DNA of 64,000 nucleotides. Source: Eremomyces bilateralis CBS 781.70. Taxonomy: Eukaryota. The notes beneath the pieces are model-generated. The model saw only the letters and a list, made by a program, of their open reading frames with translations, made no database searches and had not been told where the DNA came from. The stretch's first letter is position 1; each line of letters begins with the position of its first letter. The stretch lies in NCBI GenBank assembly GCA_010015585.1, contig ML975174.1; one strand, written 5' to 3'. Of the stretch, positions 13,913 through 33,889 are shown in pieces. The position numbers and the translations under genes were made by a program.

Positions 13913-15626
13913 TCACAGTGTATATTTGAAAAAGGGGCTCTTGTCCCCATCGTCCTTTGTCTCCTCGTGGAACCTCTCCAACTCTGCTGGAGACAGTGAT
14001 TTGAGGGACTTAGCATCCTTCCTATTAGCCGAGACGAGAACGAACAGGTTGGTGATTGTTGTCAAGATACCAACGGAGAAAATGCTCGCGAGAACAAGAT
14101 ATGCAGAGCGGAATTCGGGAGACTCTCCGCTGAGGAAGATGTTCGAGCCAACCACACCACCAATGAGATTACCCAAGGTAAACTCCAGCGCCATACCAAT
14201 AGATCGTTTCCATTGACCAGCGAGATTGTTCGAAATCCAGCAGACGATGCCTGGCACTGTAGGAAACAACCCACTGGCCACCAGGAACATAGCAAAGTAG
14301 ATAACACCCGGCTTTTCGGTTGGCGAAACCGTTAGACATATGATGAATCCACACAGGCCAAGAAGGAACGGTATAATGATTGACTGGAAGCGTCTTTGGA
14401 GCTTGTCGGCGACGACGGCGTTGACAACGCAAACAACGCACGCGAAGGCGTAGATAGGAACCGTCAGGAGCTGTGCATTTGCGGCCGAGTATCCAAGGAG
14501 CTTAATGGTTGTTGGAAGACTATATGAGAGCGAGTATGTCCCCGTGCAACAAGTAGTGAACAGTATCTGAGCAAAGCATTGTCAGAGATCGATGTTCTGT
14601 CGACATGTCAGACGAGACTTACACAGCCAAGGTAGACCTTAAGGTCCAGGAAAGCTTGTTTCAGATACTTCGGTTTGTATCGCGTCTCAGTGTAGCCACG
14701 TTCATGGCCGTCAAACTGGAGCCGCAACTGCACGAACCTCTTCTCCTCGTCCGTAAGCCATCCGACGGCGTCAGGGGCATCGCAGATGAATGGAATGGAG
14801 ACCAAAGCGACGACAATGGTCAAGAGGCCTTCGAGGATGAAAAGCCATCGCCAGCCACCGTATCCACGGATTCCTGTAGCCTGTCAGGATTTGCCATTTC
14901 TGGTTGACGACAAGGTCACCATACCCTCCATGAAACCAATTCCGTACGCGAGAAGACCCGAAAAGGATCCCGCAAGACTGGCAGCAGTGTAGAACAGGGC
15001 GATGCGGAACTGGAGCTCCTTGCGAAGGTACCATGTAGAGCAAAGATACGTCGCGCCAGGAAAGAGCCCAGCTTCGGCAACGCCCAAGAAGAACCGTGCA
15101 GAGAGGAGGCCAGCGTAGTTGTGCACCCATCCCATGCACATCATCCTAGTACCGGGTTAGACTCGCTTGGAACGGAGAAGAAACCGCTTGGCTTACACAA
15201 GACCCCACGATGCCATGAGAAAAGGCAGCCAGAAAGAAGGTTTCGTAAACTTGAGAGCCAGGTTGCTTGGAACCTCAAAGAGACCATAGGGGATGAAGAA
15301 GATGGTCAAGCAGCTGCGCTCATTAGCATTGTCACGGCTATCAGACGCAAGGTTCCGAGTTACAGATTGTATTGAGTGGGAGTCATCTGGAGGTCTCTTT
15401 CAAGCCCCTGGAGCCTTGCATTGCCCATGTTGGACCTGTCCATGAATGATAAGAGGTAAAAGACTGTAAGCAAAGGCAAGAGGCGCCAATCGATTTTTCG
15501 CAGCAGTTCTTTCTGGCGTTTGGCATCAAATCTAGTAAGGAGTTCCGTATACTCTTCGTGGTCCGAAGAGATGGCGACGTTTTCCTGGCGATCCTCAAAG
15601 CCTTTCTCAACGGAAATTTCGGTCAT
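13913..15626 (-). CDS. MFS transporter, anion:cation symporter (Dal5/Tna1 allantoate/nicotinate permease) family, multi-exon
   Basis: LLRKIDWRLLPLLTVFYLLSFMDRSNMGNARLQG, RFFLGVAEAGLFPG..Y..STWY...ELQFRIALFY, GYGGWRWLFILEG and C-terminal GDKSPFFKYTL. GT-AG introns are present. Confidence 0.93.
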
Positions 15627-15804
15627 GATGGGCGAAATGAAGGAAGCGCAAGAGATTTTTCAGTCCAGTGAATGACCCATTTCTAAAAGAGTACAAGATT
15701 TGACTATATACCTGCACTCAACTCTCCACACTATGCTAAGGGAGGCATTACCCCGTGTTCAGCCACCCCCGCATGAAATTCCACAATCCGGGGTGGCCCA
15801 AAAT

Positions 15805-15821
15805 CGGGAAATCGAGGTCCG
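15805..15821. promoter_or_regulatory. Zn2Cys6 (Gal4-type) site CGG-N11-CCG near the MFS gene start
   Basis: CGGGAAATCGAGGTCCG. Confidence 0.6.
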
Positions 15822-16205
15822 AAAATTACGAAGTAGAGAATATTTTTAAAGACAGCTTTCTACGGCGAAGTAACTGTCATATCGTTGTTGGCTACACACT
15901 CCGAGGCATAGGATCCACTTCAAGGTCTAAATGTACATTTTCCCAGACTTGTTTACAACCAAAACCCACATCTTCGTCGCTAGTGGACCTTAGGCTCAGC
16001 CTCGGTATGGGAGATACGAGCTACTATCTTCACTAAGCTAATGAAATGACCAGCACAAAATATGCTTCGTCAAACTCTTCATGCAGATCTAAATGTAGAC
16101 TATCGGAGATACTTGATATCGGCATGGCAGGGCATAAAATCGGATTGCAACAATGCCCCGATAGTTGGAAAATTTGAGCTTAGGGAATTATCATTGTAGA
16201 TAAAT

Positions 16206-16467
16206 CGGGAGAGATCGTCCCGTCCTCTTCAAACTCCAGTACACTACCAACTACCACTCTAAAAAACAATGACTATCATGTCGGCGCTGAGCCATGGTTT
16301 GGGATTTGAACGGGAGGACTACTCCCATGGCGTATGACCGTTCGGAGGATGAGTCGCCGATAGCCCCTATTGTTCCGAGTGCAGCAATAGATGGCGGGGC
16401 GTTAGATGCCGAAATCAGTCTTACCTATACGAAGTGGAAAAAGTGGGTTCCGGAGCATAACACGCCG
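16206..16467. promoter_or_regulatory. Four CGG-N11-CCG sites in the divergent MFS/carrier promoter
   Basis: 16206 CGGGAGAGATCGTCCCG; 16343 CGGAGGATGAGTCGCCG; 16395 CGGGGCGTTAGATGCCG; 16451 CGGAGCATAACACGCCG. Confidence 0.7.
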
Positions 16468-16763
16468 AATGACACTAGCCGTGTCATGCATAGGTGTGGG
16501 CGCTAAACCTAGACTAGTAGAACGGCCTCAAACTTTAAATTTGAATCATAGGTCGACGGAGCATTTCTTTGCAAAGAAAATGAGAATAATATTGATACTA
16601 TGAATGTCTCAAACTGACACAACCTGCTGAGCGGAGCGCTTGACTCCAATCACATTTCATCAAAGGTAAATGGAGTATATTAAATCGAATCACTCGTCGA
16701 TATCATCTTTGAAAGTGACCTAAGTATATTCAACTGGGCCGTTATAATTCGAGGCCGACTACT

Positions 16764-17830
16764 ATGGATCAGTTAGTGCACGGCGCTGCTGCCGAGCATT
16801 GTAATACTATCCAGCTACAAGCTGAAGAGGTACCGCGGATTTACCAACGAGGCATACGGTTAGATATTGACACTATGAGCTAGACAAAACAGCAGAAAAA
16901 GGCTAAGACTTCTTCACCCGCTGTAGCCTTTGCGTCAGGTGCTATTGCAGGAGGTGTAGAATGCTTCGTCACAGTACGCCCTCGAGCAAGCAACTACAAC
17001 TTTAAGAAGTGCTGACCGCTACCTAGTATCCCTTCGAATTCACAAAGACAAGCGTCCAGCTACGTGGCGGCAATGTATCCAAGAATCCCTTCGTGGTCGC
17101 CCATCGCATCGTGCGAACGCAGGGCGTCAGCGCCTTATACACGGGATGTAATGCTCTCGTGACGGGCACCATGGCCAAGTGCGGCGTGCGCTTCTTCGTC
17201 TACGATGGCCTTAAAGAGCAGTTAGCATCATCGTACCTGAAATGTTCCAACTTGCTCCAAGGGGTCGTGGCGGGCATGGGCGCCGGCATTGCCGAAAGCG
17301 TCCTGGTGGTCACTCCCATCGAGCGCATCAAGACCGCACTTATCGACGATGCAAAATCCGGCAAAAAGCAGCTGGGTGGCGGCTTGCACGCCATGCAGGT
17401 CATTGTTCGGACGCGGGGCATCGCAGACTTGTACAAAGGCCTGATGCCAACCATGCTGAAGCAGGCAATGACATCGGGCGTACGGATGGGGAGCTACAAT
17501 ATACTGAAGGAGCTGGGTAGGAAGTTTAAGCTTAACGATGGTTCGGTGACGATATTCATGACTGGCGCACTTGCTGGCACTATTACGGTGTATGCGACTC
17601 AGCCGTTTGACTCGATCAAGACTCGGTCCCAGGCGCTGACATCTATGAGTATGAGAAGCGCAACGAGAAGTATCATCCTAGAATATGGCATGCGTGGTCT
17701 TTGGCAAGGTAGCACAATGCGGCTCGGGAGATTGCTGTTTAGCGGTGGTATTGTGTTCACAGTGTATGAGAAGTCAGTGCAGATCATTGAGTCGCGACTC
17801 CACTTAGAGGCGCAACACCAGATAAAATAG
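16764..17830 (+). CDS. Mitochondrial carrier, citrate/tricarboxylate transporter (CTP1-like), 3 exons
   Basis: Spliced start MDQLV...AFASGAIAGGVECFVT|YPFEFTKTSVQL. Three carrier signatures: PFEFTK, PIERIK and PFDSIK. KCGVRF, KQAMTSGVRM and RLGRLLFSGGIVFTVYE are typical of citrate carriers. Confidence 0.88.
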
Positions 17831-18177
17831 AATTGCAAAATTTTGGCCCTGCCTAGCCAGTGTTGCGAAGAATCAAGAAATCGCCGAGTTAGGGCCACTC
17901 CAGCTAGGTATATACCTGGGTAAAATAAATCTGGCTGGTGAGATTTCTCCTTCCTGCTAGTAACGGTGGAAATTAATTGCTTAACTGGGCCTAGCGCGCA
18001 ATTTCCTTCGGCTTCGCCTAGGGACAACTTCAATTATCAATGTTCAACAGTTCAATCTATTCCTTCTCTCACAGACCTCAAAATGTTGGAGACAAATCTC
18101 ACCAGCCAAATCCCAAAAACGGGTGGGAAAACCTCACCAGCCATTCTAGTATCCATGTGCCTAACCAATGTGTAATA

Positions 18178-20050
18178 AGTCGGCCGCCCCCCTTGTCGGC
18201 CACCTCATCAAGAATTCAATTGACAACGTACAGGTAGACAGATTTATCAATATGAACTCTCTACATACATTTTTGCCTAATTAAATTTGAAATTCATAAA
18301 GAAATGACTCGTAAGTAGCCTTCGAAAAAATTTCAGCCTGACAGCCTCTTCTTGAGCATTGAAGATCGGGTTTAGAGGCGCCTTGTTCGGCAGTCTTGCC
18401 CGCTCAGTCTCTTTGGCTGTCTCATCCATCTTCGCAACGATTTGCTCAATATTAGCAAATCTTTCGTTCTGATCTACAGGTATTCTCTTTCGCCTTTTCG
18501 TGTGTGCCCCACCCATATCTTCAATGGTTTTGTTGAGGCGTTGAACCTCAGCTCTAAGGGCGGCGATTTCGGCGTTCTTTTCCCCAAGTCCCTTTGCAAT
18601 CTTCCCTTTCCACCCCCGGAACCCCCTTTCCGTCAGTTCTTCGAATTTTTGGTCCGGAACGTCTTTCGGGCCTTTGGTAGTATGGAAAATAGGTATATCA
18701 ATTGGTTCAGGTGTAGTGGGACGTGCAATGGTGGTAGAAGAATGGTTGGTGTTTAACTGGGAGCTATGTAATACTTTATATTTATTGAAGGGGTACATTC
18801 CGGTGGCACGAAATCCTGCACGAATATTCTGTGCAGTCAAGCCTTCTACTCTTGCTTTACTATATATCAATAAAATTATGCTTCTTAATAGGGGTATTAT
18901 CGTCAAGGGAACTTAGGAGGGACAGTGCTTGTCGATACTTGGTCTTCAGAGGGGAGAAACATGCGACGTCAAGAGGCTGGAGTATATGTGAGCAATGAGA
19001 AGGGAGGAGAAGGAGGAAGACGCGGTTACCTTTACAGGTCTTCATGATCTCAATGGTAGCATGAGATCCGTGGCCATCGCATGCTAGTAAACGCCACTCA
19101 TCGTGTCCGTTACTGTCAGGAATGGTTTCAGGCCTCAGGGAGGAACTTCTTCTCCAGCCATTTAAGGCCAATCTCGTTAGAAGTCCACGCATTCTCTGAT
19201 GTCGTGAAGTGCAATCGGTCAGGTCCTTGATTGAAGAAGGGAACCACGTAGTCTGGAGGTTTTGGCATTTGAAGATGATAAGGGGAGAGACTTTTCGACC
19301 TTCCGCGGAAACTGCCTCGATAATGGAAACCCATTCGCGATCACCAGGGAATTTAACGTAGGTACGTTTGCGTTTTCCGTTCGTTGAGGCCCCTATAACT
19401 CTCCCATTCGTTCCTATACCAAGCATTATCCCGTGTTCATCGAAATTGCACCTATTCGCGGGCTTGGTCTTGTACTGGTCGCAGATCTTCTTGTATAGGT
19501 CCAGGAATTCCGAGATGACCTCTTTTGTTGCGCCATTTGCTCGAGGCGCTTCGAGAGCCGTTCTGACCATAGAGTTTACCTGCGGGTTACGACGAAGGAA
19601 GCCTTGAGTCCAATGTTGACCGCAAGGGGTCGTATCCCCATTTTCCCGGGCAATGCATTCTGCCATTTGGACCACTCTTGCGTGAGAAGGGGCCCGATTG
19701 GCGCGGTCTTCTTCGATAATCCATTCCGCAAGGTATCTCTCTTGAACAGGGGATAGATTCTGTGTAATCTGGGCGCTCTCTTTGCGAGTTGGACGGCCTG
19801 CGAGTCTACTCTGAAGTGTAGACCTTGGGATTTGATATAGCTCCGAAACCTTGCGCAAAGAGGGGATTTTCCGGGTCGGAAAATCATCTAGAGCACTTTG
19901 CAGAGCCTCTTCTGTATATTCAGGCATTTTGGCAAGAACAATAGTCCTTGCATTGATTGTTTCATTGATTCAAAACTATCTACAGATCTACGTACAACCC
20001 GATTTAGGGTGGCTGACAAGGGGGGTGGCCGACAAGGGGGTCTGCTGACT
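18178..20050 (-). mobile_element. Pogo/Fot1 DNA transposon, full length (~1.87 kb) with a frameshifted transposase
   Basis: Imperfect TIRs (AGTCGGCCGCCCCCCTTGTCGGCCACC at left; GGTGGCCGACAAGGGGGTCTGCTGACT at right) flanked by TA. Transposase runs 19927 to 18277 (NFDEHG, DGHGSH, SHILQPLDVACF), split over three frames. Confidence 0.93.
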
Positions 20051-20738
20051 TAATATGGGGGATGAAGATCTATTTTGGGATTTCGGGGCTGCTGCCAGGA
20101 ACAGTGGGGGGGGAGAGGCTGTGGTTTGTTGGATGTTGGTTGGTGTTGATTGGTCCAATTCTTCAAACATCCCATTTTCAACTTCTCGGCTTCTTCGACG
20201 GAAACACCAACTTCTCTTGACTTTTTAGTATCGAATCATCTTCCTATTTTGGATCAAGAGATGGATATGCCTGAATTGTTACCAACCCAGGAATAGAATT
20301 AAACCTTGAGCAGATCGAACACGGCCCCAATTTCTCGGATCATTCAACAGCCGAGATACAGGTTATGGCTGTACTTGCACTGCCTTTGTACGTTCTAGAC
20401 TTTAATTAAAGATTAAAGTTTAAGCTCGGAAAATAAGCATACTTTGGCCCCATGTGGACTCTTATAGAGTGGCGCTGTCATACTACCGCCTGCTTATTTC
20501 TATCTTAGAATTCAGTGTCGAACATAGCACAAGCGCGGAGACGGCCTTGTGCCTGACGATCCGCCTGGTATAGTGAGATTGGATGACATCTCAGACAAGA
20601 CAGTGAGCTATATAAGAGTGCTCTCTCTACGTCTAGATGGTTTGAATTCATTATCACTAAGTAGATCTACCAGATACAAGACATTCACCAGTCTTCTCTC
20701 ACTCATCTACTCTTACAACTCTATAATCAGTCAATAAT

Positions 20739-21533
20739 ATGTCTTTTACCATCATTAAACTCCTCATCGCTGCACTTGCAGCTAGTGCGACTGCCGCTCC
20801 GCAACCAATCGGTCTTCGACAACCCCGTTCTGCCTCCGGAATCTCCCCTATCCCTCCAGCGCCTTCAGTCGACTTCACCAAGCTCCTAACACAACCAACT
20901 CTTGTCGATCGCTTCAAGCAACTTGTCACTCGGGACGGCAAACTTCTTCCTGAGGACGAACTACGTAGCGTCGTTTCTTTCGATTTTAACACTCCTCTAC
21001 CTGCACCAGAAGGGAAGGGAGGTGCCGTCAACCTCGCCAATACCAAGAACTGGCCCATTCTCGCCGAATCGGGACTTGCTGTTACTGTTGGCTTCCTCGG
21101 TCCTTGTGGCATCAACACTCCTCATGTCCATCCACGAGCTACCGAACTTCTTACCGTCGCCAGTGGTAGTGAGGTAGACTTCGGTTATATCCTTGAGAAC
21201 GGACTTGTCGATCCCGGTGAAAAATCGGAAATCGCTGGCAAACTTGGTCCACTTCAAGCCACTTTGTTTCCTATGGGTAGCATCCACTTTGAAGTCAATC
21301 CAACCTGTGATGATGCTACTTTCATTTCTGCCCTCAACAATGACGATCCCGGTGTATCTCAGGTTGCACAGAACTTTTTCGGTTTGGATGGCGAGACAAT
21401 CGAGGCTGTTCTCGGTTTCCCGGAACAATTCGATGGAGACCGTATTGAAGAATTCCGCAGCAAGATTCCTGCCAATGTTGCCCGTGGCATTGAGCAATGT
21501 TTGGAGCACTGCAAGATTCCCAAGAGGAAGTAA
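20739..21533 (+). CDS. Secreted germin/spherulin-1-like cupin protein
   Basis: Signal peptide MSFTIIKLLIAALAASATA, germin box GINTPHVHPRATE and FPMGSIHFEVN. Intronless, 264 aa. Confidence 0.9.
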   Translation: MSFTIIKLLIAALAASATAAPQPIGLRQPRSASGISPIPPAPSVDFTKLLTQPTLVDRFKQLVTRDGKLLPEDELRSVVSFDFNTPLPAPEGKGGAVNLANTKNWPILAESGLAVTVGFLGPCGINTPHVHPRATELLTVASGSEVDFGYILENGLVDPGEKSEIAGKLGPLQATLFPMGSIHFEVNPTCDDATFISALNNDDPGVSQVAQNFFGLDGETIEAVLGFPEQFDGDRIEEFRSKIPANVARGIEQCLEHCKIPKRK

Positions 21534-22177
21534 TGCCACCGTGTGAGAAGATCTTGATTTTTGGAGCATCATGTCCCTATTAGCGAGCATCGTCCCGGCG
21601 TTCCAATTTCGATGGGTTTTTGTTTATTTACCGAGTCATTTACAACTGTATTTACTAGAGTCCGGAGTCTAAGCTCTCTATTAAAATATCTTTTCAATTT
21701 TAGAGAATTCCGTCCACTTTTCTCATTTCTGTCCTGTGTACAACATTACAAGTCAGATTCTATGTAACTACGTACATATGAACTGACCAATATGGTAGTT
21801 AGAGGAAACCCGACAGAATTGGTAGGTGGCCGAGGCACGCCAAGGCTTTAAACCCTCACATAATATATCCTGTCTGCTCTGCTCAGTACAACGACCCGCA
21901 GTGCCATCGTCTTCATTTCAACGACAGGCAGTTGATCAATGCTCAATATTACCACTTTCTATGTCAACGCCTCCATCTTCCACCTCGCACTCATTGTCGC
22001 GTAAATTCTGTACCAGGTCCACGAAGTGTGCTGGACTACACTATGACTATACCTTGGATCGTGGCCGGCCTTGCCAGGTACTTCCTCCTGAACTCGTTGG
22101 AACCACCTTGTCAAAATCATCGCTCAAGAAAGCATCACCTCAAGACTGAAACAGAGTCCGCTCTCTACTTGACGATC

Positions 22178-23206
22178 ATGGCCATTCTCAGAGGCCGCAA
22201 GTTTCCACGTGGGCCAGCATCTGTTCCCAACTATGGTGCCCAGAGTCACCCTCCCCCCCTCCGGATCACAACAGATGAAGATGGTACGGAGATCGTCGAG
22301 GAAATGCCGCTGGCATCCTCTAATGAACCTTCTCGGCCGTACGAGGACTTCAAATCCCACTTCCTTGGACACGTTTATCCATCGATTGACTCGCTCCGGA
22401 TCCGATGGCCCGTTTTTGGTGAACTGAGCGACATTCTAGTTGTTGACGACGCTACGGATCCTTTTGCCCCAACTAAGCCCTTCCAGCTCCCCGATAGCAG
22501 CCTACATCCGGTCGCAAACCCTCGTGTTTCAGATATTAGCTCCATCAAAGTTGGCATCGACTGCCTTGGCGAATTAAGTTCTTACACTTTCAGAGAATGT
22601 GAATGCGAAGATATTGAGAATGACGATGGAACTGTTCAGAAAGATTGCCATTGTGGGATATATTACCGCAAGCCTGATCCTGTTCTGGTTGTTGGAGATA
22701 ACGAGGGGAGCGCTATCGCGATGGAAAATCTCATCCTCACACTATGTCACAGAATATCTGTGTTTCTTGGCGTTTCCCCACGGCTTCATTCCGCATTCGA
22801 TTCTATACCCCTATTCTTTCCCTTTTTAGGGAAAAGATCACCATTGTAAACCATATAAAATAGCTGCAGGAACAGCCTGTTTTCGTAGGATCCGGCTTTT
22901 CAGGATCAAGTTGAATCTATCTACGCTCTTTTGGAATCTAACGGAGTTTTCCCACCGTGTCGCTGCATTAATCACCTGATTGAGCGAAACCGCTATTTAT
23001 CTCACACATTACACCCATATATAAATTCGTTCAAGGACGACATTCTCCGGGCAAAATCATATTATTCCCCCTCTCCGCTGCCACCGGATACGCAGTTTTT
23101 GCGACATCAGCCTTTCCCGGGCCTTTTGTATATTTTATCGAGGACTATGGGCCGGAGGATAACCAATTTATATGGGAAAAGAATGCTCATATGGCTGCTA
23201 ATTTGA
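22178..23206 (+). pseudogene. Fungal hypothetical protein gene disrupted by a solo-LTR insertion
   Basis: MAILRGRKF...ENLILTL continues in frame as HPYINSFKDDILRAK... once 22745-23011 is removed. Confidence 0.65.
22745..23006. mobile_element. Solo LTR with a near-perfect 5-bp TSD
   Basis: TG...CA termini (TGTCACA...TCTCACA), flanked by CACTA (22740-22744) and CATTA (23007-23011). Excision restores the reading frame. Confidence 0.72.
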
Positions 23207-23408
23207 GAAACACTTCTATGGCATCAAGGAGATAGGACACTGTGGTCCTAAATAAGGGACATAGATCAAGCAGCGTAATTCTGCATGGGAAGAACGGGGT
23301 GGGATTCATTTTTGTCTGTGTCATTGCTCACTCATTTTGTTAGGTATTCTAGTTAATAATAGTAAAAGAGACGACAGCAAGTTGACCGCTGTTTTTGGTG
23401 GCTCCCTC

Positions 23409-23645
23409 TGTCGCAAGATGCCCCTGTTGGTTTCTACTGCCCTCTACCCCTGGGCTAGGCCTAATTAGGACTCCTCAGTCTTCTCCTAGTTATGTATTTA
23501 AGTTATCTTCATCTGGCTTACTGGCTAGACCACCTTTTCTAGGCAATGGGAATCGTTAATACCAATTTGCGTTATGACTACAGTAACTGAGCTTCAGGCC
23601 TTCAGCAGCGATCGTGCTTAATCATCACCCCGGCGAAATGCGACA
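23409..23645. mobile_element. Probable solo LTR (237 bp)
   Basis: Perfect 7-bp inverted termini TGTCGCA...TGCGACA, with a partial second copy at 4307-4424. Flanks CCCTC/CGTGC do not form a clear TSD. Confidence 0.65.
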
Positions 23646-23936
23646 CGTGCAGTCGCGGACCAACGCCAAGATCTACGATATCAACAACCCCGCGCATCGG
23701 CTATCCGTACATGTACCGATGAAGCGCCCTCTTAGCGGGAGTCGTCAAGACTCCTGGTAACAAGGTTGCTAAGGCTCACAGAATTTTAGCAGTCTCTTTT
23801 GTATACCGTACAGTATGTCGGTGGCGGACTATGTTATCCCAGTACCTAGGTCGAAGACCGCAGCCCAAACTTTTTCATTCTGTATCTCCTTAAGTCAGAG
23901 TTCTATTCCATTTGGCAGACATAAGACGACGTTGTC

Positions 23937-26279
23937 ATGTCAGGCAAAGGCGACACTGCCTCGCATCAAAGCACCACTCGGAGTTGCGAATACTGTCGCA
24001 CCCGCAAGGTGCGATGTGATACGCAGAGGCCATCATGTGGATCATGTTTCCGCCAGAATCGCAAATGCGTCTATGTGTTTCAACCGCGAAAAGCAAGGTT
24101 GGATCTTCACTCATTTATCCAACTCTCTTGGTTTCTTCCTGACTTGTGCCGTAGACCCACGCTGGCGATGCTAGAGGAGCTACGGACGGAGAATGCAAGA
24201 TTGTGTGCCATGATCCAGAGAATGGGAGGGATGAGATCCCCTGATGCGGGTAGCAACGTCGCCGATGCTTTACAGGCGGATGACAGCCAATCACTAATCC
24301 AGCAGCAACAGCGACAGCAACAAGTGTCTCATCCCGCATCAGGTGAGCTCGAGGTAGCCAGCAGTGTCATTGGGGAAGTGCAACCATCTGCATCTCAGAA
24401 TCAAGCCGACTCTGGAGGAATATCTCATGAACTGTTCGACTCAACAGATCGCAGCAATGATGCGAGCATGCCCGGCGAAGCAAGGACCAACGAAGGTGGA
24501 CCAGCGACCGTGGAGTCAACGCCGGACGTGTCCCCATACCTATGGACAGACGAAAAAGGAAAGGTCAACGCTTTTGGGCCTTCATCGGCGCTCCAATCCC
24601 GACCGAACACCGCCCGCCAGGAGGATCGGGTAGTCTCGGTCCATATGCAAAACGCACTCCTAGCAAATGCCGTCATATCACGACAGAACGAGCACAAACT
24701 GAGAGAGCTGGTTTCGCTAGACGGCGTGCCGATCGACCTTGCAATCCACTTACTAGATCTCCACTGGAACCGGCAGCACCATACGTTTCTCTTGACGTAC
24801 AGACCGGCGATCATGCGGGATATACTACGCGGTGGCCGTTTCGCGTCCAAGTTGCTCATCAATGCCATCTTTGCCTGCGCAAGCAAGTTTTCACAGCGAG
24901 CGGCTGTCATGGACGATCCTCAAAATCCCAGCACTGCCGGAGGCCGCTTCTTCCGCCGATGCGACGAGCTGATGGAGGAGAAGCAGCTCCTGCTAACCCC
25001 AAGCATCCCAACCATAGCCGGCCTGCTTCTTTTGGGCTCCTCCTATATCGCCAAGGGGTCAACATCCAAGGGCTGGATGCTTACGGGATCAGCACTACGC
25101 ATGATATTCGACCTTGGCCTGCATCTGGACCACAAGATCACAGACGAAAATGCGGAAGAAGTTGAAATGTATCGACGAGTCTTTTGGGGCGCCTTCATCT
25201 GTGACAAACTGCAGAGCCTCTATCTGGGACGGCCGGTGGGCATTCGGCTCCGCGATGCATATGTTTCCCATGAGCTTAACGACCATCTAGAGGAGAACGA
25301 GCTCTGGGCCCCATATATTGACCCTTCAATTCCTGAAGACCGCCTGCGGTTGGGTTCCGCTCCGCAGGGCCTCATCTATTCAGTATCCTACTTTCAGCAA
25401 ATCTGCCTTCTCTTCAAAATCGTCGACCGGATTATCGACATCTTCTATGTCGTGGGAGCAACTCCAGCTGAGGCTCAGGCGAGTCTCAAGGGAATTGATA
25501 ACGCTCTCGAGAAGTGGGAGGCCGACCTCCCCGGATTTATCCGGCTCGATCCTATATCCGCCACTCTCGAAGGTGGTCGCATACCGGCGCCCAACATGCT
25601 GGCTCTACACATACTCTACCACGCTGTTATAATTCTCCTGCACCGGCCGCTGGTCGCTGAAGGGCACCTGAACTGGGCAACCACTGTACCTGCGACATCT
25701 TGGAAGCGGTGCTCTGTCGCCGCGCGAAACATCACCAGTCTTGCCATCGCGTACCAATCTCGGTATACGCTGCGCGCCGCCCCATACCTCATCGCCTACG
25801 GTCTTTACGTGGCCAGCACGATCCACGTACGCAACACTGCGGCCGCGCCGAACCCGACCGGCGATCACTCCGTCTTGCTGGCATGGAGTCTGCGCTGCCT
25901 ACGGGACCTTTCCGTTCCTAATCCCGGGGTATCGCATCTTACTTCCATCATCGAAAAGCTCATGGTCACCAAGGGTGTAGAAATAGCTGCTGATCCTACC
26001 AGTGGCCCAGAAGCTGCACCAAATGCTGCGAGTGAGCATATTGCCGGATTGCATTGCGAGTACGCATCGGCGGTTCGGTTTGATTCTGGCGTGCAGTCGA
26101 CGAGCTTATCCATAGGAGAAGCGGAGTTTGATTGGAGTAACTGGCATGAGTCGTTTGAAGATGATGTGCTGTTTGGGTTCATGGGCTGGCAATCATATCA
26201 GCTAGGCGATTCGGCCCCTCAACCCATGGGTGGCACGACTTCATGTTTGGACCCATTTGAGTCCCCAGTGATGCAATAA
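23937..26279 (+). CDS. Zn(II)2Cys6 transcription factor with fungal-specific middle homology domain
   Basis: CEYCRTRKVRCDTQRPSCGSCFRQNRKC; 57-nt in-frame intron 24098-24154 (GT..CTGAC..AG); GSALRMIFDLGLHLD and RRVFWGAFICDKLQSLYLGRP. Confidence 0.95.
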   Translation: MSGKGDTASHQSTTRSCEYCRTRKVRCDTQRPSCGSCFRQNRKCVYVFQPRKARLDLHSFIQLSWFLPDLCRRPTLAMLEELRTENARLCAMIQRMGGMRSPDAGSNVADALQADDSQSLIQQQQRQQQVSHPASGELEVASSVIGEVQPSASQNQADSGGISHELFDSTDRSNDASMPGEARTNEGGPATVESTPDVSPYLWTDEKGKVNAFGPSSALQSRPNTARQEDRVVSVHMQNALLANAVISRQNEHKLRELVSLDGVPIDLAIHLLDLHWNRQHHTFLLTYRPAIMRDILRGGRFASKLLINAIFACASKFSQRAAVMDDPQNPSTAGGRFFRRCDELMEEKQLLLTPSIPTIAGLLLLGSSYIAKGSTSKGWMLTGSALRMIFDLGLHLDHKITDENAEEVEMYRRVFWGAFICDKLQSLYLGRPVGIRLRDAYVSHELNDHLEENELWAPYIDPSIPEDRLRLGSAPQGLIYSVSYFQQICLLFKIVDRIIDIFYVVGATPAEAQASLKGIDNALEKWEADLPGFIRLDPISATLEGGRIPAPNMLALHILYHAVIILLHRPLVAEGHLNWATTVPATSWKRCSVAARNITSLAIAYQSRYTLRAAPYLIAYGLYVASTIHVRNTAAAPNPTGDHSVLLAWSLRCLRDLSVPNPGVSHLTSIIEKLMVTKGVEIAADPTSGPEAAPNAASEHIAGLHCEYASAVRFDSGVQSTSLSIGEAEFDWSNWHESFEDDVLFGFMGWQSYQLGDSAPQPMGGTTSCLDPFESPVMQ

Positions 26280-26633
26280 ATGCAGGTTCGTCCATGGTTC
26301 TAAAGCACCGTATATAACGTTTGCCTTGTGATGCACCGAAGGAACTCAAGGTGAAAGCCAAGTAGTTGAAGTCACCTCCAGAAGTTTTACCATATAGAAC
26401 AGGAAGACTAGTCAGGCCGCATGAACAAAGAACCAGCCGTTAGCTGTAAGCATATTTTTATCCAACATTATGCAGAATGAGTAATTGGTGAGATCTAGGC
26501 GGTCACGTATTTCCAACATTCAAGCATGCTTGGATGACAAATTGGAAAGATTGGGAATAGGGGTGGAACCATGTATTATCGCAGAACGGCGCTGTACTCT
26601 ATTAAATATACTTCTCAGTGATAGTAAAGTTAA

Positions 26634-28306
26634 TCAAAGCCCGACAGTGATACTCTTGACATTCGTATAATCCTCCACACCAAACTTGGATCCCTCCCTG
26701 CCAATACCGCTCTCCTTGATACCACCAAAGGGCTGCTCGCAGGCGCTGATGAGCCCAACGCGAACACCCACCATACCAGTATCCAAAGCCTCGGCGACTC
26801 TCCATAGCCTGGAAATGTTTTCCGTGTAAAAGTATGCAGCAAGCCCGCTCTGGTACGTGTTGGCCAACTTGAGAACCTCCTCCTCGGTGTCAAACGGCAC
26901 CAGTGGAGCCACCGGTCCAAACGTCTCCTCACTACCGAACTTCATCGTGTCCGGTTTCGCGTCGAGCAGGATCGTTGGGACGTAAAAATTCGGCCCGAGG
27001 TCTTCTTTAATGAAGCCCCCGTTGAACAACTTTGCCCCGTTGGAAACGGCATCCTCGACGTGCTGCTGGACTTTGGTGACGCCCTTGGGCGAGTACAGAG
27101 GGCCGAAGTTGACTTTGGAGTCCCAAACCGAGCCGTAGATAAACGTCGTTTCTAGCGAGGCTTTCAGCTTTTGGGCGAAGTTTTCAATAATGGAACGATG
27201 GACGAAAATGCGGTTCGCGCATACACATGTCTGGCCGGACGATCGAAACTTGGATGCGATCAAACCTAAATGGTTACCATATGGCGTGAAGAAGGTATGG
27301 ACGACATTTACCGTCGACTGCCTTTTGAATATCCGCATCCTCAAAGACGATAAAGGGCGCGTTGCCACCAAGTTCCATGCTCGTCTTCTTCAATGTCTTG
27401 GCACATTCGGCATTCAAGAATTTGCCTACCGCTGTGGAACCGGTGAAGCTCAGATGGCGAACAAAGATGCTCTCGCACATCTCTGCTCCGATTGATGCCG
27501 CTCCAGAGATATCGCCAGTCACCACGTTCAGAGTACCAGGCGGATATCCGTCGCCCACTCGCTCAAAGAGCTTTGCAATGGCAATCGCGCACATTGGCGT
27601 CTCCGGTGCTGGCTTCAGCACAACGGTACAACCCGCGGCAATCGCCGCGCCCACCTTGCGTAGAATCATAGCAACAGGTGAGTTCCAAGGTGTAATGGCT
27701 GCTACAACGCCTTGCGGCTCGCGAGTGGTAAAGATGCGGTTGTCACCCTTCGCCGCAGGGATGGTCTCACCATAAAGGCGCTCGACTTCGCCCTGGAACC
27801 ATTCAAGAAAGCTGATTCCATAGTCGACGGTGACGAGCGATTCCGCGATGGGTTTGCCTAGCTCCAGGGTACAAATGGCTGCCAGATCATCGCGGTTAGC
27901 ACGGATGATGTCAGTCCATTTTCTAAGGAGCTCTTTGCGTTTGCGAGCAGTGAACTTCTTATATGTCTGGAAGGCGGATTGTGCAGCGTCAATTGCACCT
28001 CGAACTTCTTCACGAGAAAGGTTCGCGACCTGGAAGACGGGTTGATTGTCCACGGGGTCTATGTACCGAATACTTTAGTCAGCATACGAGTGCAAGGGGT
28101 GAACCTAATTACCGAATACGGAACAAGTGCTGCTATTCTTGGCGGATACCCATTGGCCTCCAACGTAGGCTCGTGCGTCCAACAGTGAGGGATCTTTGAA
28201 CTACAATGCTGTCAGATAAGGTAGTTCTCTTACAACGAGTAGTGATGGTGTTTACCTGGTAAGGGACAGGCTTGGAAAGGATTTCGATGCCTGAAACTGC
28301 TGCCAT
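26634..28306 (-). CDS. Succinate-semialdehyde dehydrogenase-like aldehyde dehydrogenase (cluster copy), multi-exon
   Basis: ITPWNSP, KPAPETP, FTGSTAVG, MELGGNAP, catalytic FRSSGQTCVCANR, EETFGP and PFGGIKESGIGREGSK. Start MAAVSG at 28306. Confidence 0.92.
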
Positions 28307-28557
28307 GTTTGAAGATATTAGACTTGGTGATGGGTAGATTGATAGTAATGAAACACGATGAGATTTTTCAGCAAACTCGAATCTTACCGGGTCGGGCTAA
28401 CTAATGACTCTACAGTAACAGCAGCACTGCAGAGTGATTAAAAAGGGCGACCAGCAAAAATAGCCGGCACGCCTGAACGGAGCCACTGCGATGCAGTCGT
28501 ATTGAGCAAGAGTGCGAGGCGAGGCTAGCGGCCAGCGGGCCAGCGTGGAGCCGGGGG

Positions 28558-28574
28558 CGGAGGATGATCCTCCG
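28558..28574. promoter_or_regulatory. Palindromic CGG-N11-CCG site in the divergent ALDH/lactonase promoter
   Basis: CGGAGGATGATCCTCCG is a perfect palindrome around the central base and close to the Gal4 consensus CGGAGGACTGTCCTCCG. Confidence 0.72.
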
Positions 28575-28919
28575 CAAGTGGATAGCCTAGGGAAACTGTT
28601 CCGACCAGTTCTAGTCATCCCTGGATCATCACGAACAACATCAGATATGTCCGACTTGATCCAAGCCCGACCAACTCTCCCAACCATCGGAGACGTCATA
28701 ACCCATTGCTCGTACTTCAGTACTCGGAGTGAAGGATAGTCTTTGCCGAATTTTGATCGTCATCTACGTCATGGTTCATATGGAATCAAGGCCGAGAGAA
28801 CTATAAATCATGCCATCTACATACATATTGTAGTTCCAGAAAGAAGCATAAAAAAGCTTTTTATTACAACAGACAAACTCCTCTCTATGTTTCGATACAT
28901 CCAATTGATCATCGCAATC

Positions 28920-29825
28920 ATGGTTGCACCTCTTTCTAGCGTCCTGGCCGTGCCAGGAACCGCCGTGAATTTACATCGTCTCGAAGCAGGTTTTCTTTAT
29001 CTCCCAATGGACCTATTCGTTCAGGGGTCCGCTCCAGATGACATCCGCCGGGTCCCTTCGATGTCCTGGTTGATTGAGCACCAGGTCACAAAACGGAAAG
29101 TGGTTTTCGATTTGGGTATCAGGAGGGATATTGAAAACTATCCACCCACAGTCTACGAAAGACTGCAGACTGTCGTCAAGACGGAGGTGCCTCAGGATGT
29201 CTTTGAAAGCCTCAATAAACTTCACATCGACCCGCAGAACGATGTTGATACTGTTATCATTTCACATCTGCATTACGATCACGTTGGAGACCCATCGAAA
29301 TTTGGGCCAAACGTCACTTTTCTGCTTGGACCAGGCGCAGAAGAATTGATTCTCGGCCCAAAAACTTATCCAACCGACCCAGAATCTAATTACGATTCGA
29401 ACCTGATACCCCAAGGGAACAAGCTTTCCTTCCTACCGGTGCCCTCAACCGACACCAGCGGGTTCTGGGAGCCGTTAGGGCCATTTCCGCAAACGCACGA
29501 CTTCTTCGGCGACAAGTCGCTCTTCATCATTAACGCGCCAGGTCACTGCATCGGTCACCTTAATGCTCTCGTCAGAGTGGATAATCAGAAGTGGCTCTAT
29601 TTGGCTGCCGATACTACTCACAATGCCAGAATTCTGCATGGCACGGCACAGACTGCAATATACACAGACGAAGCCACGGGTCTCCGCTGCAAGTCCGCTC
29701 ACAGTGACTTAGAGGCAGCCGAAGCACACTTGCAGCGGGTTCAGGAGTTTGCGCGGGAAACGGGAGTGGAGATTATCCTGGCCCATGATGCGGATTGGTA
29801 TGAAGCAAACTTGAAAAATTATTGA
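28920..29825 (+). CDS. Metallo-beta-lactamase-fold hydrolase (AHL-lactonase/gamma-lactamase-like)
   Basis: VVFDLG, zinc motif SHLHYDHVGD, APGHCIGH, LAADTTH and LAHD. Likely start MVAPLSS; intronless. Confidence 0.9.
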   Translation: MVAPLSSVLAVPGTAVNLHRLEAGFLYLPMDLFVQGSAPDDIRRVPSMSWLIEHQVTKRKVVFDLGIRRDIENYPPTVYERLQTVVKTEVPQDVFESLNKLHIDPQNDVDTVIISHLHYDHVGDPSKFGPNVTFLLGPGAEELILGPKTYPTDPESNYDSNLIPQGNKLSFLPVPSTDTSGFWEPLGPFPQTHDFFGDKSLFIINAPGHCIGHLNALVRVDNQKWLYLAADTTHNARILHGTAQTAIYTDEATGLRCKSAHSDLEAAEAHLQRVQEFARETGVEIILAHDADWYEANLKNY

Positions 29826-30240
29826 TTGTACTCGGTCAAATGAAGGACTTTGGATGAACAATGGACAACAGAGGAATCCCGACTTATGATGCGCGTTGGT
29901 ATGACGCGAAGTTGAACAGACAATAGTTGAACGCGCTATGGATATAGGAAATTGAAACTTCTTTACACTTTAGCTAGGGCAATGATCTGTTCATGCATCT
30001 ATACCCTTCTCAGTGTGTTAATCCGAGCGCCAGACTTCGGCCAGTTGCCCAGCTCCCTGGTGCTCGTGTTTTACGTACTCGATGAGCTGCCCACGCTTAC
30101 ATGTCACACTGATGGTCGTTATATTGCGCTTATCGGCACACTGCATGTTTCCGGGCCTTGCTCCACAGTTCAAAGGATCATGACCGGCCGGTCATATCAG
30201 CCGCGGGCACTATTATCTCCCAGGCCCGATGTGGATCTTT

Positions 30241-30257
30241 CGGAGACAAAATGTCCG
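30241..30257. promoter_or_regulatory. CGG-N11-CCG site upstream of the SDR
   Basis: CGGAGACAAAATGTCCG. Confidence 0.65.
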
Positions 30258-30523
30258 CTCCGCAGCCAGTATCAGCAACCACCACTTTCATGCTCATGTT
30301 TGCTTTGACTCTTTTATCCCTTTGCTCCGTACTAGAGTAGTAGTCGGATCCAAGTGGAGCCGTCCAGTCCTTGTCTCATCGCGACGACTTCCATAAATGC
30401 AGCGCAGCATCCAAAGATACTGCAGACATGGCATTCCAATCACGACCCTCCCCAATGACTTGAATCAAACTGATAGTTTCAAATCCAATCGAAGACTCCA
30501 GAAACTTGGTCATCAGCTCTAGA

Positions 30524-31352
30524 ATGGGCCGCTTGCAAGGAAAGGTTGCCCTCATTACTGGTGCAGGCTCTGGCTTTGGCGAAGCCATTGCCAAGTTCTA
30601 CTCCAGGGAGGGCGCTCATGTCCTCATTGCGGACATTGCCACCGAGAACGGCGAGCGGGTCACAAATGGAATCAACTCGGACCGCAGCGGTGAGCAAGGC
30701 GAGGCCATATTCGTGCAGTTCGACTGCACTAAGAGCGAGGCATGGAAGGAGGGCCTCAAGATTGCTCAAGACAAGTTCGGCAAGCTCGATATCGTCGTCA
30801 ATAACGCCGGCACGACGTACAACAAGAAGCCTAGCACCGAGGTAACGGAGGCGGAGTTTGATAAGCTGGTCATGGTCAACACGAAGAGCATATATCACAG
30901 CGTCGTCACTGTCATGCCGTATTTTGCGGAGCGGAAGCAGGGTGTTTTCCTTAATACCTCCTCTGTCGCTGGCATGAAAGTGCGACCGGGACAAGTTTTC
31001 TACGGAGGCACTAAGGGCTTCCTCAACACAGTAAGCAACAATTTCTTCCAGTCCTCCAACTCCGCTAACCATGAACCACTAGGTCACTCAAGGATTGGCC
31101 GCCGAATGGGGTCCGCACGGCGTTCGCGTCAACTCCATTTGCCCGCTACGAAGCCCCACTGGATTGCTGGAGAAGTTCTCAGGGGTTCCCGACACGGCAG
31201 AGGAGCGCGAGAGGTTCGCGCAGACCGTTCCCTTGAGACGGATGGGCGATGCCGATAGCATTGCGCATGCGGCTGTCTATCTTGCGAGCGACGAGGCCAA
31301 CTTCGTGTCCGGTGTCAACTTTCCAGTTGACGGAGGAAGATTGGCAGCTTAA
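30524..31352 (+). CDS. Classical short-chain dehydrogenase/reductase (likely NAD-dependent), 2 exons
   Basis: TGAGSGFG, IADI (acidic, NAD preference), NNAG, YGGTK (YxxxK), VRVNSICP and FPVDGG. Intron ~31031-31082. Confidence 0.93.
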
Positions 31353-31838
31353 GTCAATCCAATTGATTCATGGATTACTGTAAATATGTTGAATCCCGCT
31401 TGTTGTAAAGATATCATGAGTATGACTAGTTATATGTGTGTGCCTGTGGCTTAGTTAATATCATGCATCCACGGTTAGCGCCTTTTATCGAAGCGGATGT
31501 ATACAGGATGAGTGATAACGCCTAGGCCTACAGTCATTCTGGAAGGAGCGTGCACTATAGTATTGTGAAAGGAGACCTTGAAGTGTTAGACTTGACAAAT
31601 GCAATCTTCATAACGTGGTGCTGATTTATTTCGGACCGCGGCTACACGTTGTCCATAGATACTTGATTGATCTAGCCAGAAGTTGCCGCTCACACCAGGT
31701 ATAAATGGAGCCATAATATGACTTAATATTGCAAACACATGACTAGACGTTGATTCATTGTTTAGCTCTATTGTTGAATCCGCTTCAGATACTCTATTGA
31801 CTGCCTCCGTGATACAACCACATCTCGTAAGCAACATA

Positions 31839-33449
31839 TTACAACCTTGCTGGAAGAAAAGTACTCTGGCTGGCCCTTTCTGCTGCTGCTTTTCCTGCCC
31901 GGCGTCCAAACACAGCTCCAGAGGTGAGACCACTGCCTCCTGGGTAGTTGTCGTAGAATAGACCTCCCAGCATTTCTCCAGCGCAGTACAGGCCTGGGAC
32001 AACAGTGTTGGTTGCCGCTGAAATGACGCCAGCCGTTTCTGGGTCGACCGCAAGACCGCCAAATGTGAACGTGACACCGCAAGTGACCTTGACCGCTAGA
32101 AACGGACCCTGAGTGAGCGACAAAGCCCAGTTGGACTTGGCAAGCGGAAGGCGTTGCTTGCTGGACTGTGTCGACAGACCGTCTCTGATAGGTGGATCCC
32201 ACTTGAGGTCGGGATTTTCAGCCCTGAAGGCTTCGACAGCATTATTATAGGTCCGAATGGTTTCGAGAAACTTGTCCGGGTTCCTGAGGCCTTTTTCGGC
32301 GCACTTGCGCGCCAACTCCTCAATCGTCTGGCCCACAATCCTCTCCACACGCTCGTCACGGTACTCCTCATCACGGAGCCACGGGGTGGTTTGCGCGTCC
32401 CAAACCTGAAAGGCGGCATTATCGGGTTGTGCAAGAATAGCTTTTCCGAAAATGGCGTAAGTATAGTTGCGGAGATCGACGCCTTCATCGACAAAGCGCT
32501 CGCCGTGAGTGTTAAGCATCAAGCCAAGTGGATATCCTGATTTGGTGAATTCATTTGAGATTTGACGATCTCCTGCATGAGCTGGAGCGTTGGCATCCCA
32601 TGCGACAGAGTGGCAGCCAGACCAGTTGCCGACCTGCTTCGCGTGGGCATCGCGCATGGCCAATTCCAGGACTGCGCCGGTATTGTACGGCGTGCCACGC
32701 ACTTTGGCAATGTCCCAGTTGGGACCCAGGTACTGCGCCCTCATCCTCGGGTTGGCTTCGAAACCTCCAGCGGCTAAAATGACGGACCCGGTGCTGATCT
32801 CCCGCTCCAGGCCATTCGACGCCTGTACTACGACAAACCTGACAGCACCGGTTTTGTGGTCGAGGACGAGACGCTTGGCTGGGGTGGAGAAGAGGACCTT
32901 AATGCCGAGTGCACGGGCGGCCCTGAGATGATCTTGAATGAGGCCTTTCCCGCCGTCCTGTGTCTTGAGCGACATGCCGCCCCAGAACTTGAATCTACCG
33001 TCGACTTCGTATGCTTGACGGTTGAACGAGAGCTGGAATCGGACACCATTCTTGGCTAGCCACTTGACTGCGTCGTTGGACTCGTTGATAAGAAGATTGG
33101 CGAGTTTTGGATCTGAGCGACCGTTGCAGATTCGATCAATGTCGGCATTGAAGTCGGCCGTCGTATAAGGTTGCATGTCAATCTTTTTCGCTGTGGCCTC
33201 GTCGACATTGTTTACAATTGGAAGTAGGTCTTGCAAGCCATGGTAGACAGTTCTGAAAGCTCCCGCGGTAAAGTATGAGTTGCCTCCAGCCCAGTTCTCA
33301 GGACACGCGTCGATGAGTAGGACACGCTTGGCTCCAGACTCTGCTGCCGATATGGCACTGCAGAATCCAGCGTTGCCGCCTCCAATGACCAGAACATCAA
33401 CATCTGGCGATGCAGGTAGATCGAGACCGTCGTCTGCTTGTGGTGTCAT
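31839..33449 (-). CDS. tcuA: FAD-dependent tricarballylate dehydrogenase TcuA/CobZ-like flavoprotein (fumarate-reductase flavoprotein superfamily), with a PTS1-like C-terminal ARL
   Basis: VLVIGGGNAG, GGNSYFTAGAFR, LAAGGFEANPRMRAQYLGPNWDIAKVRGTPYNTG, GNWSGCHS, YPLGLMLN..GERFVDEG and GGLFYDNYPGGSGLTSGAVFGRRAG. Intronless, 536 aa. Confidence 0.85.
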   Translation of the reverse strand: MTPQADDGLDLPASPDVDVLVIGGGNAGFCSAISAAESGAKRVLLIDACPENWAGGNSYFTAGAFRTVYHGLQDLLPIVNNVDEATAKKIDMQPYTTADFNADIDRICNGRSDPKLANLLINESNDAVKWLAKNGVRFQLSFNRQAYEVDGRFKFWGGMSLKTQDGGKGLIQDHLRAARALGIKVLFSTPAKRLVLDHKTGAVRFVVVQASNGLEREISTGSVILAAGGFEANPRMRAQYLGPNWDIAKVRGTPYNTGAVLELAMRDAHAKQVGNWSGCHSVAWDANAPAHAGDRQISNEFTKSGYPLGLMLNTHGERFVDEGVDLRNYTYAIFGKAILAQPDNAAFQVWDAQTTPWLRDEEYRDERVERIVGQTIEELARKCAEKGLRNPDKFLETIRTYNNAVEAFRAENPDLKWDPPIRDGLSTQSSKQRLPLAKSNWALSLTQGPFLAVKVTCGVTFTFGGLAVDPETAGVISAATNTVVPGLYCAGEMLGGLFYDNYPGGSGLTSGAVFGRRAGKAAAERASQSTFLPARL

Positions 33450-33663
33450 GAGGAATGTTTGGAGATTCGGAGTTGGTATGAATGGATGGTAAGATTATTG
33501 TGACTGACCCTATACAGTTTGGATTAAGTGGTAATGTCTTCCACAGCGGATGGCTTACGCTTCTTTCACTTTCTCTTTTTATCCAGTCGCGGATCTTCCT
33601 CTTGGTGGAGAGCTGATATCGCGACGCGACCCAAGAGCTACTCAGTAGGACCAGAGCCATACT

Positions 33664-33889
33664 CGGGCTCTGAAGCCCCGTGGGCTTTCGTGCAGCATGA
33701 TGCCACAACGGAAGGTGACCACCCGGGCAGACTCATTTCGTCCGACCTTATGGAGCAAAATCCAAAGACTACCGTATTTGGCCATTGGGGTGCGGAACAG
33801 GGGAGATCATACTGGATCTCATTCGTTGATCGCCGATAAGATTTTTGCCAGTATCCAAACTCAAGACTGCGACGGAGGGAGACCGTCCG
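33664..33889. promoter_or_regulatory. Two CGG-N11-CCG sites upstream of the tcuA-like gene
   Basis: 33664 CGGGCTCTGAAGCCCCG; 33873 CGGAGGGAGACCGTCCG. Confidence 0.65.

Follow-up and report, generated by a model that had tools for sequence, protein, structure and literature searches.

We analysed a stretch of 64,000 nucleotides of contig ML975174.1 from Eremomyces bilateralis CBS 781.70 (GenBank assembly GCA_010015585.1), further referred to as the window, which is filamentous ascomycete DNA with short GT..AG introns and fungal-only domains. A preliminary description of this DNA had proposed a gene cluster for catabolism of a lactone or tricarballylate, with its own regulator. Reading frames of the window were scored with Pfam and NCBIfam models. 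All seven genes named in that description were recovered at the given place, over a span of 19,977 bp. They encode a transporter of the major facilitator superfamily (MFS), a mitochondrial carrier, a Zn2Cys6 transcription factor (TF; further called the factor), an aldehyde dehydrogenase (ALDH) of the succinate-semialdehyde dehydrogenase (SSADH) subfamily, a metallo-beta-lactamase (MBL) fold hydrolase, a classical short-chain dehydrogenase/reductase (SDR) and a flavoprotein of the TcuA family. Two divergent pairs, MFS/carrier and ALDH/MBL, are arranged as had been reported. We tentatively regard the locus as a catabolic regulon built round the factor and the flavoprotein. The genes are as follows:

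13913-15626, minus strand: MFS transporter gene; several introns; Pfam MFS_1/Sugar_tr on exon pieces
16764-17830, plus strand: mitochondrial carrier gene; exons 16764-16829, 16884-16973 and 17027-17830; Pfam Mito_carr, three times
23937-26279, plus strand: Zn2Cys6 factor gene; Pfam Zn_clus and Fungal_trans
26634-28306, minus strand: SSADH-subfamily ALDH gene; Pfam Aldedh; TIGR01780
28920-29825 (alternative upstream ATG at 28887), plus strand: MBL-fold hydrolase gene; Pfam Lactamase_B
30524-31352, plus strand: classical SDR gene; Pfam adh_short; one predicted intron
31839-33449, minus strand: TcuA-family FAD flavoprotein gene; 536 aa; Pfam FAD_binding_2, NF006130

Contigs of one public sequencing run (X3) were aligned to the window. 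They skip short GT..AG segments and therefore represent transcripts. Spliced transcripts were found for five of the seven genes (MFS, carrier, factor, ALDH and flavoprotein), and the MBL gene is covered by one unspliced contig of the same run. Introns seen in the RNA contigs are 14567-14622 and 15314-15363 in the MFS gene, 16830-16883 and 16974-17026 in the carrier gene, about 24098-24154 (in frame) in the factor gene, 27264-27309, 28059-28112 and 28201-28255 in the ALDH gene, and 33504-33558 in the 5' untranslated region of the flavoprotein gene. The SDR intron (31031-31082) is predicted from GT..AG borders and the reading frame, the RNA cover there being low and without a joint. The ATG just ahead of the conserved N-terminus of the carrier is followed by an in-frame TAG. 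The first carrier intron splices out this TAG and adds an upstream exon of 22 codons; the gene is intact, since its transcript drops the TAG and joins the upstream exon. A minor ALDH splice form (window 28300-28387; depth 7.6 vs 30.5) loses the start codon and is possibly non-coding or regulatory.

The flavoprotein matches PF00890 (FAD_binding_2; E 3.6e-37, residues 33-521 of its open reading frame, ORF) and has the N-terminal GxGxxG motif in the form VIGGGNAG. The preliminary description had called it TcuA-like, and this holds at the level of the broader TcuA model NF006130 (PRK08274), which is passed with 502.2 bits (cut-off 369). The stricter equivalog TIGR02485 is failed (246.1 bits, cut-off 372.55). 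Proteins from two metagenome loci (L045 and L052) pass both models, with 596 and 583 bits on TIGR02485, and have TcuB directly downstream of TcuA (374 and 425 bits on TIGR02484); identity of the flavoprotein to these TcuB-linked TcuA proteins is 31-33%. The window ORFs scanned include no TcuB partner, that is, none with an Fe-S or CCG domain. The pattern of passing NF006130 only, without TcuB, is common to the fungal proteins and a bacterial group 42-47% identical. The neighbours in that group are genes of organic-acid metabolism: GntR/FCD regulators, PrpD/MmgE, aconitase, an isocitrate-lyase-family gene, and ETF or acyl-CoA dehydrogenase. Because TIGR02485 is failed, no TcuB is seen in the window and the bacterial relatives stand in organic-acid neighbourhoods, profile and neighbourhood evidence assigns the flavoprotein to a TcuB-independent sister subfamily tied to organic-acid metabolism and not to demonstrated tricarballylate dehydrogenases. 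The failed model also makes it less likely that the acid is tricarballylate itself.

In an alignment with flavocytochrome c3 fumarate reductase, H280 and R327 of the flavoprotein are the counterparts of His365 and Arg402, which we take to be substrate ligands of that enzyme together with His504 and Arg545. H280 and R327 are invariant in 21 fungal orthologues. The C-terminus of the flavoprotein, ARL, matches [SAC][KRH][LM], the consensus of the type 1 peroxisomal targeting signal (PTS1) of peroxisomal matrix proteins, and thus points to the peroxisome. An [SAC][KRH][LMI] ending is present in 50 of 120 flavoprotein orthologues, ARL being the commonest (30). The protein is near-universal in Pezizomycotina. 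It is closest to Sordariomycete and Eurotiomycete proteins (76-78% identity), as is the factor (52-57%); the source name of the window's factor is that of a Dothideomycete of uncertain placement. In the tree the flavoprotein stands apart from six Dothideomycete sequences, and a forced grouping, chosen after the tree had been viewed, was rejected (p-AU 0.0029). Horizontal transfer or old paralogy is a possible explanation of this affinity of the flavoprotein and the factor outside the Dothideomycetes. According to a figure legend in PMC4557415, AN6133 is the neighbour of sltB in Aspergillus nidulans.

The MBL protein retains an intact HxHxDH motif, and its further metal ligands are invariant. 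Its orthologues align from the second ATG (28920), and a signal peptide read from the first ATG (28887) was ruled out as unconserved, since the orthologues start at the second one. The family profile matches 20 PDB sequences, which are mostly named lactonases (N-acyl homoserine lactone lactonases, 4-pyridoxolactonase, AiiA, GcL), the remaining ones being annotated merely as hydrolases or similar. The protein scores far under the cut-off of every curated lactonase model. By its relatives, it is an MBL-fold hydrolase of the lactonase-like clade and a putative lactonase. The family is patchy, with 43 matches and a best identity of 58%.

The two ORF halves of the cluster ALDH score 309.4 and 253.3 bits on TIGR01780, whose cut-off of 646 is for the whole protein. 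Another SSADH-subfamily ALDH gene, probably encoding a housekeeping enzyme, lies at 39351-40855 (minus strand) and has a better score on the same model (361 and 246 bits). Since the cluster ALDH is only 46% identical to it, the former is a diverged paralogue. A third ALDH gene, benzaldehyde-dehydrogenase-like, is located at about 51180-52127 (plus strand). In the SDR, the Ser/YxxxK motif is present and the second strand is followed by an Asp, a residue that usually indicates NAD.

The MFS protein falls with Atlas clusters named allantoate permease (0.98); on this lead it may be of the ACS/Dal5 type. The carrier matches PF00153 in three stretches (E 9.8e-47), and its nearest Atlas cluster, also a lead, is 'Tricarboxylate transport protein' (0.96, 225/256 features). 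With the features of the Ctp1/SLC25A1 type it may be described as tricarboxylate-carrier-like, with a putative specificity. The factor gene, with its Zn_clus and Fungal_trans domains, sits inside the cluster and encodes the candidate regulator of the set; the protein is called NirA-like in source names. In a Fusarium gene model, a factor of this family is fused to a carrier 44% identical to that of the window.

The common promoter motif that had been claimed was also found. The gapped pattern CGG-N11-CCG occurs 24 times in the window (14.5 expected), and ten of these copies lie in four promoter regions totalling 3,448 bp, the other 60.5 kb holding 14. The null distribution was formed by 2000 dinucleotide shuffles of the four regions; they yielded 0.47 copies on average and 4 at maximum, and none of them reached 10 (0/2000). 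The motif core is the palindrome CGGAG-N7-CTCCG. With at most one mismatch, it occurs six times in the four regions vs 0.08 in shuffles (0/2000), and three times in the other 60.5 kb. Exact 8- to 10-mers common to three or four promoters were absent, just the gapped CGG pattern being shared. Relative to the RNA contigs, the sites fall either between contig ends or a short distance upstream of them:

15805-16648: MFS/carrier divergent promoter; CGG-N11-CCG at 15805, 16206, 16343, 16395 and 16451; one-mismatch palindrome at 16632
28558-28574: ALDH/MBL divergent promoter site; perfect palindrome CGGAGGATGATCCTCCG, between the ends of two RNA contigs
30241-30257: SDR promoter site; CGG-N11-CCG CGGAGACAAAATGTCCG, preceding the SDR start by 283 bp
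33664-33889: flavoprotein promoter; CGG-N11-CCG at 33664, 33709 and 33873

Metagenome contigs were scanned with a profile of 21 fungal flavoprotein orthologues, which yielded 80 loci, 28 of them fungal (59-70% identity). Fifteen of the 28 are flanked on one side by 5 kb or more, and approximately 22 are distinct. In five of the fungal loci (L009, L015, L020, L021 and L034; three or four distinct) a factor orthologue with 39-55% identity is encoded within 1.5-3 kb of the flavoprotein gene. In six distinct loci (L009/L015, L010, L012, L018, L020/L034 and L021) the gene of the TcuA-like orthologue is preceded by the palindrome at a distance of 88-663 bp, for example CGGAGAATGAACCTCCG at -88 and CGGAGGACAAGTCTCCG at -281. 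All five loci with an adjoining TF orthologue carry it between the factor gene, or its neighbour, and the flavoprotein gene. The set at L009 comprises amidohydrolase_2, a PIG3-type reductase (a quinone-reductase-like dehydrogenase), the factor, a class II aldolase-family gene and the flavoprotein, and the motif is also present between the factor and PIG3-type reductase genes. Here, different feeder enzymes surround the same factor-flavoprotein core. Where they align, the L021 factor and a Trichophyton rubrum protein are identical (zero branch length); hence the factor and flavoprotein genes form a divergent pair in dermatophytes, and the palindrome lies 281 bp upstream.

Linkage in named genomes was judged by locus tags and accession numbers, with same-sized contigs as a further proxy that is not proof. 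The factor and flavoprotein genes are two genes apart in Venustampulla echinocandica (BP5553_09780/09782) and consecutive in Dactylonectria macrodidyma (KAH7175274/KAH7175275). Going by their numbering, the factor and MBL genes lie seven apart both in Cladophialophora carrionii (OCT51762/OCT51769) and in Aspergillus nanangensis (FE257_007856/007849). Same-sized contigs shorter than 60 kb point to further linkage, namely six additional pairs of TF and TcuA, three of TF and MBL (one Penicillium-like clade) and a single one of MBL and TcuA. On the tree of factors, all five MBL-linked proteins and five TcuA-linked ones share with the window's factor a clade of 28 rows (support 99); flavoprotein-linked factors also occur more widely on this tree.

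Other elements lie between the carrier and factor genes and beside the set:

18277-19969, minus strand: pogo/Tc5-type DDE transposase gene; Pfam DDE_1, HTH_Tnp_Tc5 and HTH_psq; expressed and spliced, with intron 18977-19029 in RNA contigs
20739-21533, plus strand: secreted cupin (germin/spherulin-like) gene; Pfam Cupin_1; N-terminal hydrophobic, secretion-type leader
about 21900-22770: expressed gene without family match, seen in RNA contigs
about 22745-23440: high-copy dispersed repeat; DNA word depth ~6,300 vs 164 around (~40-fold), many loose ends in both runs
35922-37737: second pogo/Fot1-like element, apparently complete, with 88-base terminal inverted repeats (87.5% alike) and an open frame of 564 codons
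729-2894, minus strand: HET-domain gene, flanking the region
38016-39011, plus strand: methylthioadenosine-phosphorylase-like gene, flanking the region
53.9-62.6 kb: long open frames without family match

The transposase gene at 18277-19969 is an interruption outside the regulon. The cupin gene, with no CGG-N11-CCG found in its promoter, is outside it too. A composite transposon enclosing the block was ruled out, the two pogo copies having no nucleotide similarity. A DNA joint 17950-22745, seen in one contig of run X1, was rejected as probably a repeat artefact, with 28 letters on one side and the high-copy repeat beside it.

We favour, at slightly less than an even chance, the explanation that the locus is a pathway-specific, regulator-controlled regulon with which this filamentous ascomycete breaks down an organic acid or lactone. 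Its conserved core is the factor and the flavoprotein with a conserved operator. In this explanation, the lactonase is a lineage-specific addition feeding this core, and so, probably, are the two dehydrogenases and the transporters. As the same operator is present at the MBL, ALDH, SDR and both transporter genes, the most economical account is one regulon round the substrate of the flavoprotein. One regulator for the set is plausible because the palindrome is also found upstream of TcuA-like orthologues with an adjoining TF orthologue; the factor would thus plausibly control the whole set.

Under this explanation, the factor would most likely bind the Gal4-type palindrome CGGAG-N7-CTCCG and turn on the six neighbour genes. 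The anion-type MFS transporter would import a carboxylated lactone or hydroxy-acid, and the MBL would open the lactone ring. The SDR and then the ALDH would oxidise the freed alcohol via the aldehyde to the carboxylate, giving a substituted succinate, tricarballylate or not. The flavoprotein would desaturate it in the peroxisome with O2 as the likely electron acceptor, since no TcuB was seen in the window, and the carrier would take the unsaturated di- or tricarboxylate into mitochondria. The scheme of the preliminary description is compatible with this explanation, but its specific lactone-to-tricarballylate chemistry, with a particular lactone and an aconitate-like product, is a conjecture. 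A further-reaching version of the explanation, which we consider doubtful, is an as yet undescribed regulon that is widely conserved in Pezizomycotina. With CGGAG-N7-CTCCG as its recognition site, the NirA-like factor would there activate a TcuA-family oxidase that is peroxisomal, independent of TcuB and specific for tricarballylate or another substituted succinate. In the window, it would be joined by a recruited lactone-opening and oxidising module and two transporters, and it would be the first eukaryotic tricarballylate-type pathway, distributed over cytosol, peroxisome and mitochondrion.

Several observations weigh against the single regulon. The first two genes (MFS and carrier) are set apart from the other five by the transposase gene, the cupin gene, the gene without family match and the repeat, none of which had been mentioned in the preliminary description. 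Near the flavoprotein gene, homologues of the ALDH, MBL, SDR, MFS, carrier and cupin were found in 0 of the 28 fungal loci, 15 of which are flanked by 5 kb or more on one side (tblastn, E<=1e-5); in these loci its neighbours are housekeeping genes (adaptin, gamma-tubulin complex component, Eaf7, Sec1, SNF2). In no other fungus was the SDR or the ALDH shown to be linked to the factor. Thus, of the coherent gene set with its own regulator, the gene identities, the motif and the recurrent TF-MBL and TF-TcuA linkage stand, and a conserved seven-gene unit is not supported by the 28 loci. The palindrome is missing within 1.2 kb upstream in 16 of the approximately 22 distinct fungal loci, and no CGG-N11-CCG was found upstream of the factor's own gene. 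The limits of the promoter regions were set by start codons, yet after the motif had been spotted. Besides failing TIGR02485, the flavoprotein lacks two of the four substrate ligands of fumarate reductase, having other residues at the positions of His504 and Arg545. The depths of RNA contigs range from 2.7 (SDR) to 151 (flavoprotein) in one run and cannot rank the genes, so that no conclusion about co-expression follows from them.

In a rival explanation, the locus would hold two separate units with a shared regulator family or motif type: a conserved TF and TcuA-like pair acting on a di- or tricarboxylate, and an independent blc-like MBL-SDR-ALDH route from a lactone via 4-hydroxy-acid and semialdehyde to succinate, a normal TCA intermediate, without need of the flavoprotein. 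MBL-linked and TcuA-linked factors often occur without the other partner, the ALDH falls in the SSADH subfamily, and the patchy distribution of the MBL family differs from the near-universal presence of the flavoprotein. However, the same type of palindrome is found at all four promoters, with the best copy at ALDH/MBL, and the MBL-linked factors are all inside the clade of TcuA-linked ones. Moreover, one contig of 10,299 bases appears to carry both an MBL and a TcuA-like gene. We consider two units unlikely.

A chance neighbourhood, that is, unrelated genes in a transposon-rich region with a pathway fitted to common enzyme families, seems quite unlikely. The full set is unconserved in the 28 fungal loci, transposons and a repeat occur within and beside it, and with two further ALDH genes in the window a nearby ALDH is unremarkable. 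On the other hand, chance would not account for a motif count reached in none of the shuffles, for the motif upstream of orthologues in other fungi, or for the recurring TF-TcuA and TF-MBL linkage.

The preliminary description had offered, as its alternative, detoxification of unsaturated plant lactones. The flavoprotein would reduce the C=C bond of a butenolide or alpha-methylene-lactone, either ahead of ring opening, as proposed there, or afterwards. The FAD_binding_2 family does contain C=C reductases, the best PDB matches of the flavoprotein being fumarate and urocanate reductases, and a vinyl phenol reductase model was also matched. Nevertheless, its nearest curated model is a dehydrogenase, and it is kept in many fungi without a lactonase nearby; we infer that the PTS1-type ending and the lack of a reductant-supplying partner fit an oxidase or dehydrogenase better. 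We regard detoxification as very unlikely. A secondary-metabolite biosynthetic cluster, with an MBL-type thioesterase, a tailoring SDR and flavoenzyme, an MFS exporter and a cluster factor, is highly improbable: the mix of TF, MFS, SDR, FAD enzyme and MBL does resemble polyketide accessory genes, but a scan of window ORFs gave no PKS, NRPS or terpene synthase domain, the named PDB matches of the MBL profile are lactonases, and the flavoprotein and factor are conserved among housekeeping genes elsewhere in fungi.

The regulon we favour shares features with several known systems. Salmonella tcuRABC serves tricarballylate utilisation and encodes the FAD-dependent dehydrogenase TcuA, which oxidises tricarballylate to cis-aconitate, the Fe-S electron shuttle TcuB, the transporter TcuC and the LysR-type regulator TcuR. 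The window is similar in having an NF006130-family flavoprotein beside an importer and a dedicated regulator, and the flavoprotein's bacterial relatives adjoin aconitase and PrpD genes. In contrast to the Salmonella system, the window flavoprotein fails TIGR02485, has no TcuB in the window and ends in a peroxisomal-type C-terminus, and the regulator belongs to the Zn2Cys6 type instead of LysR.

The gamma-butyrolactone pathway of Agrobacterium (blcABC/attKLM) consists of an MBL lactonase, an Fe-alcohol dehydrogenase and SSADH. The window likewise has an alcohol dehydrogenase gene flanked by genes for a lactonase-clade MBL and, beyond it, an SSADH-subfamily ALDH, whereas the MBL scores only 55.5 bits on the AttM model NF045700 (cut-off 390) and the dehydrogenase is a classical SDR (PF00106); no Fe-alcohol dehydrogenase of the AttL/BlcB type was found among the window ORFs scanned. 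Furthermore, the window system is eukaryotic and includes an extra flavoprotein and two transporters. In pyridoxine degradation by Mesorhizobium loti, the SDR pyridoxal 4-dehydrogenase acts before the MBL 4-pyridoxolactonase. Of the relatives of the window MBL with solved structures, 4-pyridoxolactonase is one of the best, and here too an SDR adjoins the MBL; however, the MBL scores 54.9 bits on the pyridoxolactonase model (cut-off 325), and the other genes of that pathway are absent. The adjacency and the kinship suggest an order of steps in which the SDR would make the lactone from a lactol and the MBL would then open it. By this analogy, it is equally open with the order given above.

Fungal catabolic clusters with an in-cluster Zn2Cys6 activator include those for quinate (qa/qut), nicotinate (hxn) and proline (prn). 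The locus resembles them in its in-cluster Zn2Cys6 factor, transporters, enzymes, divergent promoters and repeated CGG-type operator. It differs in the enzyme set, and other fungi share just its TF-TcuA and TF-MBL parts. Systems of this kind are well known, and the present member is undescribed: no description of a fungal TcuA-like pathway or its regulator was found in the literature searched.

If the favoured explanation is true, a regulator, an operator sequence and the first target genes are assigned to a flavoprotein of most filamentous ascomycetes that is undescribed in the literature searched. It would also show how a conserved two-gene core gains different feeder enzymes by lineage: an MBL lactonase, SDR and ALDH here, compared with an amidohydrolase, a quinone-reductase-like dehydrogenase and a class II aldolase at L009. 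Tricarballylate is an inhibitor of aconitase, and fumonisin-type toxins are built with it; for this reason, a fungal tricarballylate route, if true, would interest plant and rumen microbiologists. Unsurprising in kind, the locus is a clear, testable lead on a widespread enzyme.

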